From Octopus vulgaris (taxonomy: Eukaryota): a DNA stretch of 64,000 nt. The notes beneath the pieces are model-generated. The model had not been told where the DNA came from. It saw only the letters and a program-made list of their open reading frames with translations, and searched no databases. Below are positions 24,908 to 57,300 of this stretch, piece after piece. The number at the start of each line of letters is the position of its first letter. The stretch's first letter is position 1. A program made the position numbers and the translations under genes. The stretch is from positions 12,772,001 through 12,836,000 of the forward strand of contig OX597814.1 in NCBI GenBank assembly GCA_951406725.2, in the 5' to 3' direction.

Positions 24908-24949
24908 ACTAGCATTAAAGATCCGTCGTTGCCGGGTCATAGTGCTAGT
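24908..24949. mobile_element. Tiny palindromic Helitron-end-like element
   Basis: actagca...gatccgtcgttgccgggtc...tgctagt: a hairpin with CTAG at both ends, in a TA-rich context. Confidence 0.4.
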
Positions 24950-25528
24950 GCATGTATATATGTGTATATATATGTGTACATATTACATGCACATCTATAT
25001 ATATACATCTTCAGATAAAATACAAAATACAAAGTGATATCTTGATATCGCTAGTGATAACAATACTCAAAATAAATAACAGACTGGAATTGTTAGCCCG
25101 TCTCTTGTAATTTCGATCAATTGTATCTTGTCCTCCCTCTTGTATAGAAGTGTGGCTACAATCCAGCCTACCTCAACTTCGGGGGGGGTCATTTAAATTT
25201 TTTATCCGGCACGTCCTACGTCCCAGATATAAAGGTAAAAATAAAATATTTCCACTTTGCAAGTTCGAGTCGAGTACTCCCTTGCGCGCACCGTTGACTC
25301 GAACCTTGCTTCTATTGAGGCAAATTTACTGCCTCTTTCATAGTAGCACCAAGACACTTTTCGAAGGTGCTTTCCTCCATGTTATTTCTTTATTACCCAC
25401 CAGGGGCTACGAAGAATGGCGGACATAACAAAACATGGGGGACATAGAACAATATGATTAAATTTATGAGCAAATGAAAATGAAAAATGATAATATGAAA
25501 GCGATGCTAACGGCCCCCTCCGCCAGCA

Positions 25529-26902
25529 TCACTTACCTGTCCTTTTGATTTCACTGTCACCTGAATGTTCATTCCCAATACGAAGACCATCCATATCCAT
25601 TCTTACTCCGAAACTGTCCTCCATATATTCCACGAATTCATCGCTCATTCTTGTATCTTTCACCTCCCAATTCTCCCTTTCACACCTCAACACAAACTCA
25701 TCTATATTCTTCTTTTCCAGCACTGCATATCTGGTCCCATCCATTTCATACCATTCATACTCCTCCATTACCCTTTCAACCTCTTTCTGTTCCGTCACAA
25801 TATAAATGTTCGGCCTGGGTTCGTTTTCAAACTCTTGTCTGTCTGTATTATTATTTTTCTTTTGTTTTCTTGTTGGAGGGGAGCGGGTGGGTTCACTGTC
25901 TGCAGGGGAAGGATGGGACTCCAAGGGTATGGGTGGTGTCGGGGTGGGTTGGGGCTTCGCACAGTTTTTCTTTTTCCTTCTTTTTCTCTTTGTTCCCCCT
26001 TCTTTCCACTCTTGTTGCATCTCCTCTTCTTCTGTCGTTTCCTTCTCTGTTTGTTTCTGTTTATTTTCTTCCTCTCCTGAGGCTTCCTCAACGCTTTCCT
26101 TTTCTTTTTCCTTTGGTGGGGGAGGGCAGTAGGCTCTTATGTGACCCCTTTGGCCACACTTGTAGCACCTGGGCGCCCTACCCTCCACCCACACTCTCAT
26201 AATAATATTTCCAGTTTTTATGCTGTCCGTAATCCTCTCTATAACATCCGCCTCCGCTTGAATGTTCATAACTAGTGTGGCACCTCTCACGCCTTCATAC
26301 TTCATAATGGCGTGGAGGATGTCCACTTTATCTTCATTTCCTTTTATAACCGCAGCCGTTATTAATTCGCCCTCTAGGTGTGGAGGTATTCCCTCCACCC
26401 TAATTCTGGTTGTCCGCCTATTCAGATACGAGGGTAACAAGTAAATCTTTTCTGTACTCACCACCTTGGCTGCTACATTCCTGGCTGCTTTTTCGCTTTT
26501 AAATTGCACCGTTATCGTTCCGTATTGTAATCCTTTTGTCATGTACACAATTTCCTCTCCTGTCTGCTTGAGAGCCTCTTCAATTGCTTCCATGTTGATT
26601 ACTTCCATCTTTCTACCTCCATTCATAAATACTTTATATTTAATGGTTCTACGATGGAACCAGTCTCCGCGCCCTACTGGATGCAGCAGCTCGACTTCAC
26701 CGTTCTCGTCCTCCTTCACAAACTCCTGGAGGCCCGCCAACTTAGCCAGGTCTATCTCTCTTTCCGTTGACTTCTTCGTTACACCTGCGTAGGTGCCTTC
26801 CATCTTTTTCACCGCCAACTCCTCCTCAGATGTCGATACTTCCGTCGAAATTTCAGAGTAAATTCTCCCTTCCATCTCCTCCGCTTGATGGAGGCGGCTC
26901 AT
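25529..26902 (-). CDS. L1/Tx1-type ORF1 (gag-like) protein with CCHC zinc knuckle, unit A (457 aa from ATG 26902)
   Basis: Intact ORF with TYAGVTKK, RIRVEGIPP (RRM-like), RVWVEGRAPRCYKCGQRGHIRAYC (CX2CX4HX4C) and a basic NLS-like KRKRRKKK. The first 40 codons of the track ORF are UTR or neighbouring-unit sequence. Confidence 0.85.
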   Translation of the reverse strand: MSRLHQAEEMEGRIYSEISTEVSTSEEELAVKKMEGTYAGVTKKSTEREIDLAKLAGLQEFVKEDENGEVELLHPVGRGDWFHRRTIKYKVFMNGGRKMEVINMEAIEEALKQTGEEIVYMTKGLQYGTITVQFKSEKAARNVAAKVVSTEKIYLLPSYLNRRTTRIRVEGIPPHLEGELITAAVIKGNEDKVDILHAIMKYEGVRGATLVMNIQAEADVIERITDSIKTGNIIMRVWVEGRAPRCYKCGQRGHIRAYCPPPPKEKEKESVEEASGEEENKQKQTEKETTEEEEMQQEWKEGGTKRKRRKKKNCAKPQPTPTPPIPLESHPSPADSEPTRSPPTRKQKKNNNTDRQEFENEPRPNIYIVTEQKEVERVMEEYEWYEMDGTRYAVLEKKNIDEFVLRCERENWEVKDTRMSDEFVEYMEDSFGVRMDMDGLRIGNEHSGDSEIKRTGK

Positions 26903-27113
26903 AGTCGCCTCCGACCGAAAAACGGCCGCCAAAACAGAAAAAGTGTAACGCGCTGAACGAGCTGATTTTTTATTACCCACTAAGGGGCGACACAGAGGGG
27001 GACAACAAAGACATGGGGACATAGAACATTATAATTAAACTTTATGAACATGTATTGTTAAACGAAAAAAAATGATAAAATGAAAGCGATACCAACGGCC
27101 CCGTCCGTCAGCA

Positions 27114-28527
27114 TCACTTACCTGTCCTTTGTTTTTCATAGTCACTTGAATGTTCTTTGCCAATACGAATAAATTCCATATCCATTCTTACTCCGAAATA
27201 CTCATTCATATTTTCCACGAATTCATCGCTCATTCTTATATCTTTCACCTCCCAATTCTCCCTTTCACACCTCCCCATAAACTCACCTATGTTCTTCTTT
27301 TCAATCACAGCATACCTAGTCTCTCCAACATCATACCGTTTATACTCTTCCATTAGACTTTTAACTTCCCTCTGTTCAGTCATAGTACAAATGTACGGCC
27401 TGGGTTCGATTTCAATCTCTTGTGTGTGTGTATTCTTTTTTTTTTTGTTTTCTTGTTGGGGGGGAGCGGGTGGGTTCAATGTCTGCATGGATAGGGTGGG
27501 ACTCAGAGGGTGTGGGAGGTTTTGGGGTAGATTGGAGTTCCATATTTTCTTTTTTTCCACATATTCTTCTCTTCCTCTTACTTCCAGCTTCCTTCCATTT
27601 CTGTGTATTCTCTTCCTCTGTTTCCTTCTCCTCTGGTTTCTGCTTCTCTCTCTCTGGTTCGGGATCCATTTCTTTCCCTGGGGGAGGGCAGAAGGCTCTT
27701 ATGTGACCCCTCAGGCCACACTTGTAACAACGTGGAGCCCTGCCCTCCACCCACACTCTCATGATCACTTCTCCCAGTCTGATGCTTTCCGTCAGGTCCA
27801 CCAGTACCTCGGTCTCTGCCTGTACGTTCAGCTCCACTGTTACGCCTCTCCAGCCCTCGGACTTAACCGAGGCATGGAGAATATCCACTTCGTCCTCGTG
27901 GCCGCTGATCACAGCCGCCACAATCCATTCTGCCTCCACGTTTGGTGGCACTCCCTCCACCCTTATTCGTGTATTCCTCCTGTTTAAATACGTAGGTAAC
28001 AGTGTTACCTTTTCCGACTTCACCGCCTTCGCTGCCATCTTCCTCGCTACAGATTCACTTTTAAAGTGCACAACTACGGTCCCGTACTTGGATCCTCGAG
28101 TCAGAAAATTTATTTCCTCCTCAGTTCTTCGCAGGGCTTCCTCTATCCATTCCATGGTTACAACTTCTACCCTCTTCCTTTCGTTTGCGAACACCCTGTA
28201 AACAATGGTCCTCTTATCATACCATTCTTTTCTCCTGGGTGTCGGTGATAGTTCCACCTCACCGCTTTCCTTTTTCATGTATTTCTGGTAACTTGGCAAC
28301 TTGGCCATGTCGACCCCTTTCTCTTCCGCCTTCTTGGTTACACCGGCATAGGTATAACCCAGCTTCTGATCCATTTTCCTCACTGCTATTTCTAGCTCCT
28401 CCTCAGATGTAGACAAGTCTGATAAAGACTCGAAAACTCCAGCCTCTTCCTCCATCAGCTTCACTGCAATTGCCTGTTCCAGTTCCTCATCCGTCGTGGA
28501 CAAGTCCGTTAGAGACTCATAGTCCAT
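27114..28527 (-). pseudogene. ORF1 (gag-like), unit B, frameshifted near the C-terminus
   Basis: 371-aa ORF (27412-28527) with CYKCGLRGHIRAFC. The C-terminus continues in another frame (27114-27560) after an indel in the T-tract near 27435. Confidence 0.85.
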
Positions 28528-28841
28528 TTCCTTCTGTCTGACAGACCGAAAACGGCCGCCAAAACAGAAAAAGTGTAACGCGCTGAACGAGCGAAACGCG
28601 AAACCGCGTCAACGCCGTTCAGAATTTCCACAACAACAACAACGCTTTTTGTTCTTTTTTACCGAATTTCAGGAGCCGAAAAAACCACATATTTCTTTAT
28701 TACCCACTAAGGGGCTACGAAGAGTGGTGGACATAACAAAACATGGGGACATAGAACATTATAATTAAACTTTATGAAAATGAATTGTTAAACGAAAAAA
28801 TGATAAAATGAAAGCGATACCAACGGCCCCGTCCGTCAGCA

Positions 28842-30188
28842 TCACTTACCTGTCCTTTGTTTTTCATAGTCACTTGAATGTTCTTTGTCAATACGAATAA
28901 ATTCCATATCCATTCTTACTCCGAAATACTCATCCATATTTTCCACGAATTCATCGCTCATTCTTATATCTTTCACCTCCCAATTCTCCCTTTCACACCT
29001 CCCCATAAACTCACCTATGTTCTTCTTTTCAATCACAGCATACCTAGTCTCTCCAACATCATACCATTTATACTCTTCCATTAGACTTTTAACTTCCCTC
29101 TGTTCAGTCATAGTACAAATGTACGGCCTGGGTTCGATTTCAATCTCTTGTGTGTGTGTCTTCTTTTTTTTCTTTTGTTTTCTTGTTGGGGGGGAGCGGG
29201 TGGGTTCAATGTCTGCATGGATAGGGTGGGACTCAGAGGGTGTGGGAGGTTTTGGGGTAGATTGGAGATCCATATTATTTTCTTTTTTTCCACATATTCT
29301 TCTCTTCCTCTTACTTCCAGCTTCCTTCCATTTCTGTGTATTCTCTTCCTCTGTTTCCTTCTCCTCTGGTTTCTGCTTCTCTCTCTCTGGTTCGGGATCC
29401 ATTTCTTTCCCTGGGGGAGGGCAGAAGGCTCTTATGTGACCCCTCAGGCCACACTTGTAACAACGTGGAGCCCTGCCCTCCACCCACACTCTCATGATCA
29501 CTTCTCCCAGTCTGATGCTTTCCGTCAGGTCCACCAGTACCTCGGTCTCTGCCTGTACGTTCAGCTCCACTGTTACGCCTCTCCAGCCCTCGGACTTAAC
29601 CGAGGCATGGAGAATATCCACTTCGTCCTCGTGGCCGCTGATCACAGCCGCCACAATCCATTCTGCCTCCACGTTTGGTGGCACTCCCTCCACCCTTATT
29701 CGTGTAATCCTCCTGTTTAAATACGTAGGTAACAGTGTTACCTTTTCCGACTTCACCGCCTTCGCTGCCATCTTCCTCGCTGCCGATTCACTTTTAAAGT
29801 GCACAACTACGGTCCCGTACTTGGATCCTCGAGTCAGAAAATGTATTTCCTCCTCAGTTCTTCGCAGGGCTTCCTCTATCCATTCCATGGATACAACTTC
29901 TACCCTCTTCCTTTCGTTTGCGCACACCCTGTAAACAATGGTCCTCTTATCATACCATTCTTTTCTCCTGGGTGTCGGTGACAGCTCCACCTCACCGCCT
30001 TCCCCCCTCATGCATTTCTGGTAACTCGGCAACCTGGCCACGTCGACCCCCCTCTCCTCCGCCCTCCTGGCCACACCGGCACAGGTACAACCCAGCCTCC
30101 CCTCCAACTCCCTCGCTGCCACATCCAGCTCCCTCTCAGACACAGGCAAGTCTGATAAAGACTCAAAAACTCCAGCCCCCTCCTCCAT
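28842..30188 (-). CDS. ORF1 (gag-like), unit C, open frame with an A-to-G hypermutated N-terminus
   Basis: Nearly identical to unit B over 28842-29980. The original ATG (MDY in unit B) is now GTG. The next surviving ATG is at 30188 (448 aa). Confidence 0.75.
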   Translation of the reverse strand: MEEGAGVFESLSDLPVSERELDVAARELEGRLGCTCAGVARRAEERGVDVARLPSYQKCMRGEGGEVELSPTPRRKEWYDKRTIVYRVCANERKRVEVVSMEWIEEALRRTEEEIHFLTRGSKYGTVVVHFKSESAARKMAAKAVKSEKVTLLPTYLNRRITRIRVEGVPPNVEAEWIVAAVISGHEDEVDILHASVKSEGWRGVTVELNVQAETEVLVDLTESIRLGEVIMRVWVEGRAPRCYKCGLRGHIRAFCPPPGKEMDPEPEREKQKPEEKETEEENTQKWKEAGSKRKRRICGKKENNMDLQSTPKPPTPSESHPIHADIEPTRSPPTRKQKKKKKTHTQEIEIEPRPYICTMTEQREVKSLMEEYKWYDVGETRYAVIEKKNIGEFMGRCERENWEVKDIRMSDEFVENMDEYFGVRMDMEFIRIDKEHSSDYEKQRTGK

Positions 30189-30779
30189 CAGCCTCACCGC
30201 AATTGCCCGCTCCAGCTCCCCATCCGTCGTGGACAAGTCTGTCAGCGACTCACAGTCCACTTCCCTCCGTCCGACAGACCGAAAACGGCCGCCAAAACAG
30301 AAAAAGTGCAACGCGCCGAACGAGCGAAACGCGAAACCGCGCCAACGCCGTTCAGAACCTCCACAACAACAACAACGCCTTCTGCTCCCTCCCACCGAAT
30401 TTCAGGAGCCGAAAAAACCCGACCTTTTTTCTCTACATTGTATACTTTATAGACAATAGTCTTTTCTTTAATTTAATTTTTTATTATCCATCTGGACTAT
30501 TCCATTTCTGCACGCTAATTTTAAAAAAAATTTATTCCCATTCATGTGAAACCACTTATTCAAGTTCAAGTCATTGATGCAATTTTATACCAATTGCTAT
30601 TTTTATATTTGTTTATGTTACGATTATATTATGCTTTAGTTTGATTTTAATTATTACTTACTACATATAATTCAATTGTTATTATTATTTTTATTGTTAA
30701 AGTGAAAGTATCTGACATAAAATAGAGAAATGTTTTTGTTTCACTTTCAACACGTAATACTGAAATAGTGGAGAAGATA

Positions 30780-30957
30780 TGATATTGCTATGGGCTCGCT
30801 CTAGGCAAGAAGTTGAACATTTTTTTGCCCATGAAACTACATGGATCCTAAGTAAGGCATGTGTAAAATTTGAATGAAATTGGTTGTGTAGTTCTCAAGT
30901 TTTAGGGAAACACACAGACAGACAGACACACATTCTCAGTTTTATATATATAAAGAT
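30780..30957 (-). mobile_element. Helitron-like 5' fragment (second family)
   Basis: Minus strand a|tctttatatatataaaactgagaatgtgtgtctgtctg, same architecture as the 5' end of 17088-17473. Confidence 0.45.
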
Positions 30958-30980: not shown

Positions 30981-31337
30981 GAGAGAAAGTCGTCAGTCTG
31001 GAAAAAAATTATTGTTTTAATTTCTTCATTATTTATTAGCGCTTTCGTTCCTTTCTCGAACTTGTGAAATTAAATATTTAAATGTCCAAACAGTTTGTTC
31101 ATTTATATAAAACATGTTTTTTGGGAGTGTTGGTTAGAAGAAGAGAACATTGTTTTTGTTTTTGGAGTGAGCTTCCTTGACAAACCCACTCCAATACAAT
31201 GGTAAATGACTTAAAGAAATGAATGATGAACAGAAATGGAATCCCCTTTTTCTTTCTTCCTCTCTCTGAGCCCTCTCTCTCTCTCTCTCTGTGCCTCTCT
31301 CTCTTTCTATCTATCAGCCTATCTACCTACCTATATT

Positions 31338-31408
<71 letters not shown>

Positions 31409-31613
31409 CCATTGTCATGGAACCACGCCCCCCAAAACAAAATCAATGTTCTCTTCTAAACAAAACCCCTAAAACATATGTTTTATGTAATTGCACACGC
31501 TGTTTGTACATTCACAAAATTTTTTTGACAAGTTCGCGAAACGAGCGAAAGCGCTAATAACAATGAAGAAATAAAAAAGATTATTTTTTCCAAGATTCTG
31601 ACGACTCTTTTCT
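30981..31613. mobile_element. Diverged inverted pair of PLE-like terminal repeats around a (CTAT)n spacer
   Basis: ~30981-31210 is the imperfect reverse complement of ~31405-31613. Both arms contain a hammerhead-like motif. Confidence 0.7.
31520..31560 (+). ncRNA. Hammerhead-like motif, U3-A8 variant (second family)
   Basis: TTGACAA gttcg-cgaaa-cgagc GAAA gcgc TA ataa: 5-bp stem II and palindromic stem III AGCGCT. Stem I is degenerate. Confidence 0.55.
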
Positions 31614-31680
31614 CAATACTCAATTTCTGTACAGCGCACCTAACAGACACACACACACACTCTTTGTCTGTCTGTCTGTC

Positions 31681-54850: not shown

Positions 54851-55539
54851 CTGGTCAATCCCTTCAATAGAAAGTGATTCTTGGCTTTTAGAAATGGCAA
54901 ACCCAGGTGGTTACTCCAAGGAGGGTAGATGTTATTTTTCAAAAAATTGTCTGGATTTCTGTTAACCATTGTTTTGTAAGTGTGTGTGTGTGTGTGTGTT
55001 CGTGTGTGTGTAGGTGTCTGTGTATCTGAAAAGAGTGTCAATGGAAAAGAGAAAGAAAGAAAGAAGGAAGAGAGAAAGAAGAAAAATGTGTTGACATCTT
55101 TACAGCTGGTCCCTTGGAATGAGAGTGTTTTAGCTTGTCCATATGCAGCTAAACACCTTTTCTCTAAATATTACTAGTTATGAGAATAGATACATTCAAA
55201 TGTGAATAGATACATTCAAATGCGAATAACCGTTATAACATCATTATATTTTCTTAATGCACATGCACAAGTATACATGCTATTGTTTTTTCTCCAGATA
55301 TCGACATAAATATATAAGTAATTATTTATAAACTTAATTCATTTAATAAAATTTTAAATATATATTATCAAAACTCCCATAGATTATATCCAATAGATAC
55401 TTGAATATAATGTGGAATTATATATATACATATTTTCAATTATGCCTATCTTTATTTATATTTTATACATCTATAGTTTTGTTTTTTGTATGATAATTTT
55501 AGCATATACATACACCCCATATATACATACAGGGAAAGA

Positions 55540-57300
55540 GAAAAAATGAAAAAACTTAGATTTGTTTTACATGACTAAAGAATATATTAGAATCATCATA
55601 GTAAAATTATTTTACAATATTATACAAAATAAGATTTTAACTTCCAGCATAATATAATCGGTTTCGCTGATGCTTTTCAAATGTTTGAGTGTTGGATATA
55701 ATTTGGAGTTAGAGCTTTTGTTTGCTAAGGGAGATAATTCGTAACCAAGGTGTTTTTCAGTAGAGGGTAGGTAAATCTGTAAATTTTAATATCGAATTGG
55801 ATTTGATTCTAGCTTATATCAATATTATATTCAATAGATGGGGGTAAATCATTCCTTTTCAATATGGGTTTATATTTATTTCTGGCTTATATTTTTCGAT
55901 AACTGAGACCTCTTTATTTAGTCGCATTTGGTGATGAAGTCCAAATAGCAAATTGATATAATGGGAAAAGTAGGAATTGTGGTTGCACTTGTTCTGAATA
56001 TCTGTCAATGTGTTCACTGATAAATATCTGATGTTTGGGGGGAAGATATATGTTGTTTGTGTACTGTACATCTTCATCTGAGAGACGTTCCTGTAGACAC
56101 TATAGAGTTTTTATGGCAGCCCGAACACCTGATTACATAAATGAGGTTTTCAGAGGCGCAAGTGATTTTGTGATTTTATTTTGAATATTTGCCCTTGTCT
56201 AAAACAGAATTGTTATCCTTCCAAAAGATTGGGACATGTTCCGCAGGTAGAATGCGGTCGTCAGTTAGGACGACCGCATTGTTATATTCTTGCATCTGTT
56301 TATCTTGGGAATAATTTTAATTTTGTGAGGATCTTCTTTAATGTCTTTGGTTGTTTACTGCTTTTAATGATTTCATGAGTACGTAGTATTTCCTTGAAAA
56401 AAAAAGTATATAAACGGATATTTTTTTTCCAAAACCAAAGACGTTAAACAATATATATTATTTAGCTGATGTCACTCGAGATATATCAAATCAAATATCC
56501 GCTTGCAAGAAGAATTTTCACCATAGTGTCCGAAAAAAGTACCAGAGAGCTCAAATTGCAAGACCTTGAAAACGTACTCATGGAGAGACACTACCAAATT
56601 CAACTCATAAATGATGGGATTAAACGTGCACAATCGATTGGCATAAAAACATTAAGCAATTCGAACACAATAACACACCTACTTTGAAAACACTACCTTA
56701 TGTATCCACATGCAACCCCAGAAAGAAAGAAGCATTTCACATCATTCTATAATACTCTATAAGGACCCCAAACTGAGGGAAATTCTACCTTATCAGATGT
56801 GCAGAACAACTACAACCACAATTCCCAATGTTCCAATTATATCATCTTGCTATTTGGACCTCAACAAAGTGCGACTAAATAACCAGGTCTCATTTATCGA
56901 AACACATAAGCCAGAATTGAACATAAACCCATATTGAAAAGTAAAGATTTATCCCATCTATTGAATATAATTCTGATATAAGTCAGAATCAAATACAAAT
57001 CAATATTAACATTTAAAGATTTACCTACCCTGTACTGAAATATACTTTGGTTACCAAATATCCCCTCTAGCAAACATACTTTCTAACTTCAACTTGTATG
57101 AAATTCTCAAACTTTTGAAAGCGTTAGCGAAACCGGTTATATTATGTTGGAAGAAAAAATATTAGTTTGTATAAAATTATATAATACTTTTACTATGATG
57201 ACTCTAATATATTCTTTAGTTATGTAAAACAAATCTTGTGTTTTTTTTTATCTTTTCTATTTCCATTTATATAAAAACACGTGGAATAAACAACAATATT
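55540..57300. mobile_element. Older Penelope-like copy (related to 9241-11487) with inverted arms
   Basis: Minus arm ~55540-56395 (MRLNKEVSVIEKYKPEIN) and plus arm ~56400-57300 (PLARRIFTIVSEK..LMERHY). Degenerate hammerheads at ~55651-55686 and ~57110-57143. Confidence 0.82.

Follow-up and report, generated by a model that had tools for sequence, protein, structure and literature searches.

A dense A>G tract in a non-autonomous retroposon unit of Octopus vulgaris, probably the retroposed copy of an ADAR-hyper-edited transcript

In this study, which was based on a 64,000-nt stretch of the Octopus vulgaris genome (G000:C1:12772001-12836000, referred to as the window) and on a search of the 2.8-Gb, 227-contig assembly, we describe a retroposon unit, unit C, whose 5' end carries dense A>G changes on the sense strand of the element. 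Judging from the sequence evidence, it is highly likely that unit C is the retroposed copy of a sense transcript that was hyper-edited by ADAR in a long duplex and then written into the chromosome by a borrowed reverse transcriptase (RT). That the tract originated in ADAR-edited RNA, whichever of the two write-back routes considered below was taken, appears more probable still. The retroposition of an edited transcript had been proposed in an earlier note on this DNA, and the proposal is supported by the depletion of changes after a 5' G, the marks of target-primed retroposition, a signal found only on the sense strand and its recurrence in other copies. The term "genomically fixed" that the note used stands in so far as the changes are written into this genome assembly; "fixed" had to be corrected, as the wording is too strong for a population. 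The features are collected in Table 1.

Table 1. Coordinates of the edited tract, the three units of the array and the interrupted host repeat in the window
Feature	Position	Strand	Remark
A>G hyper-edited tract	29982..30393	-	57/120 A read G, no other substitution vs closest sister
Unit C, 5'-most unit of the array: non-LTR retroposon of the B type, 1.7 kb, full length, ORF1 only	28693..30419	-	
ORF1 of unit C, open, 472 codons counted from GTG in place of ATG	28842..30260	-	CCHC knuckle seen in C itself
Upstream in-frame stop TGA, TGG in C	30342..30344	-	
3' tail of unit C, motif GCCCCT(N1-2)GTGGGTAATAAA	28693..28750	-	24,231 genome occurrences
Unit B, unedited B-type, ORF frameshifted at T-run near 27440	26966..28686	-	
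Unit A, 5'-truncated A-type, 3'-most of the array	25386..26965	-	~75% alike to B over 3' 1.1 kb
Host repeat half (~1.05-kb repeat), upstream of unit C, unedited	30420..30957	.	0/98 family-A sites G
Host repeat, other half, ACTAG start	24908..25385	.	~7 nt between halves of empty site missing at insertion

When units B and C were realigned globally (B 27000-28700 with C 28720-30440), the tract, which covers unit positions 27-438 (~410 nt), showed 57 T>C changes on the plus strand and 11 other substitutions in 412 columns containing 120 T in B, exactly the count that had been made by hand. The reported near-identity of both units over 28842-29980 also held, with one T>C among 404 T (1134 columns; Fisher p=4e-41 vs the tract). 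A comparison of unit C with its closest sister among the fetched copies (G000:C8:56783947-56785670) revealed 57 of 120 A that read G, no other substitution and one gap, and the 11 non-A>G differences from B are therefore ordinary family polymorphisms. Scored against the per-site letter counts of the family, unit positions 27-438 of C contain 55 rare A>G and zero rare changes of any other kind. The ends of the tract are sharp: editing begins 27 nt inside the unit and the adjoining host DNA is spared, with no G at any of the 98 family-A sites in the 200 nt of host repeat next to C and at none of the 69 next A within the unit. The 39 next-best genome matches to the 5' region of B are 96-99% alike, while those to the tract of C reach only 85-89%, and most family copies carry A; it follows that C is the derived copy, as had been suggested, and that A is the family state. 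Within the coding region, both changes described earlier were seen in C, i.e., the ATG of B (28527) has become GTG (30260) and an upstream in-frame TGA has become TGG, which extends the open frame to 519 aa compared with 499 aa in most intact copies. Although 29 of the 93 first codons of C differ from B, the frame stays open.

[quoted passage not shown] As had been observed, A after a 5' G were mostly spared: only 5/41 of them were changed against B compared with 52/77 of the remaining A (p=6e-9), and 2/39 against the closest sister compared with 55/81 for the rest (p=1e-11). In the latter comparison, the changed fractions were 12/15 after U, 35/47 after A and 8/19 after C, and this order (U,A > C > G) is the one reported for all of the metazoans examined in PMC9989829. 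A preference for a 3' G was found against B (24/37, p=0.018), yet it reached only p=0.07 against the sister. RTs can place dG opposite dT, and skewed dNTP pools favour such errors. Misincorporation of this kind, for example in second-strand synthesis, would also be bound to the element and specific to one strand, and it would accommodate the mild 3'-G preference; it does not, however, predict the avoidance of a 5' G (2/39 here and 14/305 in the other copies described below) or a rate of 47% that falls to 0/69 at the next A. Hot sites, among them unit positions 155, 159, 353, 412-416 and 438, also recur between copies, as 68 of the 87 sites of 11 other copies (without C3:20071451) were changed in C, and we consider misincorporation extremely unlikely.

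Further A>G-clustered copies, for which the earlier note had suggested a scan, were found in the family. B-type pieces from the pooled loci (544.5 kb in 54 segments) were scored against the per-site letter counts, and a cluster was called, in all 12 substitution classes, at five or more changes per 200 nt of which at least 70% belonged to one class. Of 188 B-type pieces from 53 segments, a set that is biased upward by 30 loci retrieved with C as the query, 18 contained A>G clusters; none had a cluster of G>A, T>C or C>T, and one had a T>G cluster. The 18 pieces are spread over 11 contigs and follow the strand of the element on both chromosome strands. In the 17 clustered pieces other than C, A with a 5' G were again spared (14/305 vs 218/631, p=8e-28), the changed fractions being 141/339 after A, 57/148 after U, 20/144 after C and 14/305 after G, and a 3' G was preferred (87/268, p=8e-4). 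Their tracts differ in place, e.g., 155-577, 715-882, 1165-1404 or 1282-1499, and in background haplotype. An older copy at C1:106898092, one of 10 pieces in a later set, was compared with its tandem neighbour; 48 A>G and 11 other changes separate the two, with 3/53 changed after a 5' G.

A null built from the 170 unclustered pieces gave a mean of 0.5 and a maximum of 3 clusters in 300 draws compared with the 18 observed. When the edited changes were kept in the pool, the shuffle reached a mean of 6.9 and a maximum of 12 clusters, so some of the small clusters are less secure. On C1-C10:43.7 Mb, clusters were found in 9 of 124 pieces, C included, and roughly 7-10% of the sampled B-type pieces were probably edited and retroposed independently. 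In 14 further pieces that were picked by protein similarity, no A>G cluster was found, and the single T>C cluster consisted of five changes in a variant tail. No A>G clusters were detected in A-type (0/36 and 0/15) or D-type pieces (0/11) or in halves of the host repeat (0/58); these sets together contained two G>A clusters and one A>T cluster. The difference between A- and D-type pieces (0/62) and B-type pieces (18/188) was significant (p=0.008), and perhaps only B-type units have an antisense partner, hence the lack of A- and D-type clusters. Along the B-type unit (positions 20-1700), the 1000 nt at the 5' end had a rate of rare A>G per A site ~2-3x higher than the 700 nt at the 3' end. In unclustered B-type pieces, A>G sites were likewise depleted after a 5' G (16/182 compared with 67/361, p=0.002; p=0.4 for T>C as the control), which suggests that more B-type copies may have been lightly edited than are clustered.

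The polarity of the clusters bears on the deamination of DNA. Editing by an APOBEC, which would leave sense G>A clusters, was rejected, as there were 0/188 of these and the polarity is A>G. It is also conceivable that the substrate of ADAR, or of a different deaminase, was DNA, either within an RNA:DNA hybrid, on its DNA strand, or in an R-loop at the locus; ADARs were indeed reported to act in vitro on the DNA of DNA:RNA hybrids (PMC12925331). Deamination of the first-strand cDNA, or of the template strand in a sense R-loop, would, however, appear as T>C on the sense strand, whereas 18 A>G and no T>C clusters were found in the 188 pieces, and the host DNA beside the tract is untouched, which makes this explanation very unlikely.

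Equally improbable, in our estimation, is an artefact of assembly, base-calling or polishing, or a contamination of the assembly with cDNA. Mismatch clusters have been documented for Sanger traces, where they were of the G-to-A type (PMC2873906), but errors would not follow the strand of the element, spare A after a G, halt at the element's 5' end and recur in 18 pieces on 11 contigs. Read-level data were taken from Logan contigs, in which four runs were compared at 96% likeness; among the runs listed, none was on record as RNA. Run X1, which is DNA by guess and may be the source sample of the assembly, contained a 76-nt contig over 29977-30052 that differs from C in two letters, compared with six mismatches for the best other fetched copy and 13 for most unedited copies. 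A run outside the assembly file accordingly holds a near-identical edited stretch, which supports the existence of real edited alleles outside that file, unphased to the C locus; the X1 contigs are short and no raw read spanning C was seen, which leaves some room for the artefact. The 76-nt contig carries the edits of C and an extra T>C at 30015 that was absent in 157 fetched copies; it may represent either another edited copy or a site that was reverted in the assembly. Runs X10, X12 and X2 lacked cover over part or all of the tract and, being contigs, were uninformative. The depth of X1 bins was rejected as a proof of the alleles of C: other copies reach part of every bin (31 nt, 1 mismatch), so only the 76-nt record is informative.

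The structure of the units shows that they are non-autonomous non-LTR retroposons that travel through RNA. Each unit is 1.6-1.8 kb long and has one ORF, for which Pfam gave a weak zf-CCHC knuckle alone, below the cut-off, while the Atlas neighbours of the ORF1 protein were CCHC and ZCCHC3-like proteins. The model of the unit-A protein (27-sequence alignment; pLDDT ~90 for residues 50-260) had tandem-RRM proteins as its best PDB matches, and because the protein of unit A is homologous (59% identical), tandem RRM-like domains are predicted for ORF1 of C as well. No capsid fold was among the PDB fold matches listed for this model, and the PDB sequence matches to Gag covered the knuckle only. Neither an LTR pair nor pol was present in the units, which sets them apart from retroviruses and LTR elements, and having no ORF2 with endonuclease and RT, they do not belong to the autonomous LINEs of the L1/Tx1 clade either. 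No RT was found in any unit and no RT-like ORF upstream of 17 further unit tails. Solo copies are 3'-anchored and 5'-truncated. Direct repeats of 13-25 nt, i.e., target-site duplications (TSDs), flank 10 of 12 solo copies, with a spacing that fits the piece in eight of them, a count made without a shuffled control; repeats of 18 and 11 nt were seen by eye at C22 and C31.

An RT could be supplied through the 3' tail of the unit. Of the 24,231 occurrences of the tail motif, 20 loci were sampled, and in all of them it ended a SINE or a 5'-truncated SINE. Shared 3' tails are the way in which SINEs borrow the RT of LINEs, as described in PMC4824008. A LINE partner that encodes RT was not found at these 20 tail loci, which were all SINEs among the matches listed, or at the 17 unit-tail loci. 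The SINE that shares the tail (L141-L160) is ~230 nt long, has a tRNA-like head by eye, with no tRNA predicted by ARAGORN in six SINE loci, and is flanked by 16-18-nt TSDs; it also builds 184-nt tandem arrays through self-insertion. Its middle part may resemble the MetaSINE domain.

At least three types of ORF1-only units (A, B and D) occur in head-to-tail arrays of up to 14 units, for example at C2:138.77-138.79 Mb, C14:37.73-37.75 Mb and C8:32.27-32.28 Mb, and the genome contains 428 unit tails and 172 B/A-type 5' motifs. Many arrays, including that at 24908-30957 of the window, are inserted at a single fixed position in a ~1.05-kb host repeat, of which 404 empty copies were found; in the host repeat, the target shows a short deletion rather than a TSD. 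Arrays appear to grow by the addition of new units at the 5' end of older ones, via a microhomology of 1-3 nt. The host repeat, both in the window and in the empty copies, has an ACTAG start and a GACA microsatellite, and it may be HINE/Helentron-like. Elements of that kind have an ACTAG start, a subterminal inverted repeat and palindrome and a 3' microsatellite, and they make no TSD. HAL1-like elements are non-autonomous non-LTR elements with an ORF1 and no RT, and Tx1L inserts into Tx1D. The units resemble these systems in having an ORF1 without RT and a preference for another repeat as the target, and they differ in their head-to-tail arrays and in at least three ORF1 types that share the tail of a SINE. 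No description of an ORF1-only head-to-tail array system was found among the literature matches listed.

Based on these features, the following sequence of events can be proposed. A B-type unit would have been transcribed on its sense strand, and ~410 nt at the 5' end of the transcript would have entered a long RNA duplex, whose partner was most likely antisense RNA that came from a different copy, 97-99% identical, and paired in trans. ADAR would then have deaminated about half of the adenosines of the tract with its usual neighbour preference, a step whose signature is visible in the DNA and which suggests the enzyme. An RT provided in trans by a LINE would have recognised the 3' tail common to the unit and the SINE, begun synthesis within the host repeat, at the array's 5' junction, and read I as G, and there is a hint that it may have switched from unedited onto edited RNA between unit positions 297 and 497. 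The copy would finally have entered a heritable lineage, as the chromosome-scale assembly and the older edited copies suggest.

Alternatively, an edited cDNA could have replaced the 5' part of an existing unit by RNA-templated gene conversion, a route that involves the same enzyme and RNA step. Unit C is a mosaic that follows the haplotype of C2:138.77 Mb to unit position 484 and another from 497, and the switch interval of 297-497 contains the end of the tract at 438. Among 16 tract 3' ends, six were located inside a switch interval compared with 3.2 expected, which agrees with gene conversion and can be read as no more than a hint of a template switch at tract ends. Mosaics are, however, usual in the family, and template switching in the course of retroposition explains them equally well; moreover, the 5' end of the unit is also where the tract starts, and the host flank is spared. 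Gene conversion is therefore regarded as improbable compared with direct retroposition of the edited transcript. B-type units in general are mosaics of a few haplotypes with a median of two switches per long unit, which indicates frequent template switching or gene conversion.

In the case of the duplex, an antisense or inverted partner, for which the earlier note had suggested a search, was not found: there was none in the window, and 0/59 fetched segments carried the tract region in both orientations. An intramolecular hairpin as the substrate of ADAR is not supported, as the longest helix predicted in the unit RNA had 14 bp and edited and unedited A were paired alike (28/57 vs 27/63), although the predicted folding of the 5' 991 nt of the unit was better than that of 20 shuffled sequences (z -3.67). 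Because no cis duplex was found and the places of the tracts vary, pairing in trans with an antisense RNA is the likeliest arrangement. An array with an internal inversion (G000:C1:74677001-74686000, L063) has unit positions 783-1721 in both orientations, which lie outside the tract region; it could supply dsRNA in cis for the 3' half of the unit. The window itself has two inverted repeat pairs that are unrelated to the units, 30981-31183 with 31412-31614 (78% alike) and 55524-56004 with 56794-57273 (83%). Genes of the A_deamin family (PF02137 over the cut-off) were found at four loci of the genome; this family is not limited to ADAR.

The edited copies look like dead ends so far, to judge from the sequences that were compared. 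No A>G cluster marked a lineage of several units, and the variants common to many copies comprised 34 A>G and 34 G>A. The idea of a route by which RNA edits diversify DNA is thus far unsupported, with zero edited tracts seen in daughter copies. A common ancestry was considered for C and the copy at C3:20071451, in which 19/19 of the tract sites of the latter were changed in C (p ~0.009 at 78% average overlap), and was rejected because their backgrounds differ at 15 tract sites and at 16 in the next 460 nt. A steep hierarchy of sites fits this overlap better than shared ancestry.

Several known systems resemble that of the octopus in part. Retroviruses with ADAR-type clustered A>G, in which nearly half of the A were changed, have been reported (PMC12925331) and are likewise reverse-transcribing elements. 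These cases are exogenous and were edited in U3 or in an inverted repeat, as described there, whereas the family of unit C is endogenous, non-autonomous and non-LTR, with no inverted repeat found and many independently edited copies. In one mouse provirus, an excess of A>G was described without the ADAR context (PMC12548423). Knisbacher and Levanon compared sister copies of endogenous LTR elements and found scars of APOBEC editing that are also strand-biased, clustered and context-dependent (PMC4866542). Those are G>A changes on the cDNA of vertebrate LTR elements; the octopus element is non-LTR, and its changes are A>G that most likely arose on RNA. As presented in that report, the screen was confined to LTRs and to G-to-A changes, A-to-G alignments were removed by a filter, and invertebrates were at noise level. 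Hyper-editing in metazoan transcriptomes has the same neighbour preference, has young repeats as its main target and has sense-antisense pairing as a documented substrate (PMC9989829; squid repeats in PMC9068888). In these accounts it is described in RNA only, whereas the edits in octopus stand in genomic DNA, and the anti-transposon role of ADAR in cephalopods is called "yet unexplored" (PMC9068888). Human L1 is another case in which ADAR meets the RNA of a non-LTR retroelement: in a cell assay, the restriction of L1 by ADAR1 was independent of editing, with zero edits in >2.5 kb of L1 RNA (PMC5224506). A report of ADAR-edited endogenous non-LTR copies was not found in the accessible full text of the literature searched, for which the supplements of PMC4866542 on other mismatch classes may matter. 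ADAR-type A>G in retroviral sequences is already known, and what is added here is the frequency at the level of a family, the control by strand and the link between editing and heritable change.

A-to-I editing is commonly treated as transient. In this family, edited RNA appears to have been written into chromosomes repeatedly through retroposition. The sequence evidence suggests that ADAR meets RNA that is competent for retroposition in cells whose DNA is inherited, which the human L1 assay, as described in PMC5224506, did not show. Whether ADAR restricts or diversifies retrotransposons in vivo becomes testable from assemblies alone, and bursts of A>G can inflate the age estimates of young repeats. 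It is feasible, and to our minds slightly short of an even chance, that ADAR is a routine and heritable mutator of non-LTR retroelements in this lineage; several percent of the new insertions of an active family would then be hyper-edited, partly via RT switching, and the same scar would be expected genome-wide in LINEs and SINEs. If this reading is true, it would provide an adenosine counterpart to the editing of ERVs by APOBEC, and the scars would serve as fossils of the activity of ADAR in the germline.
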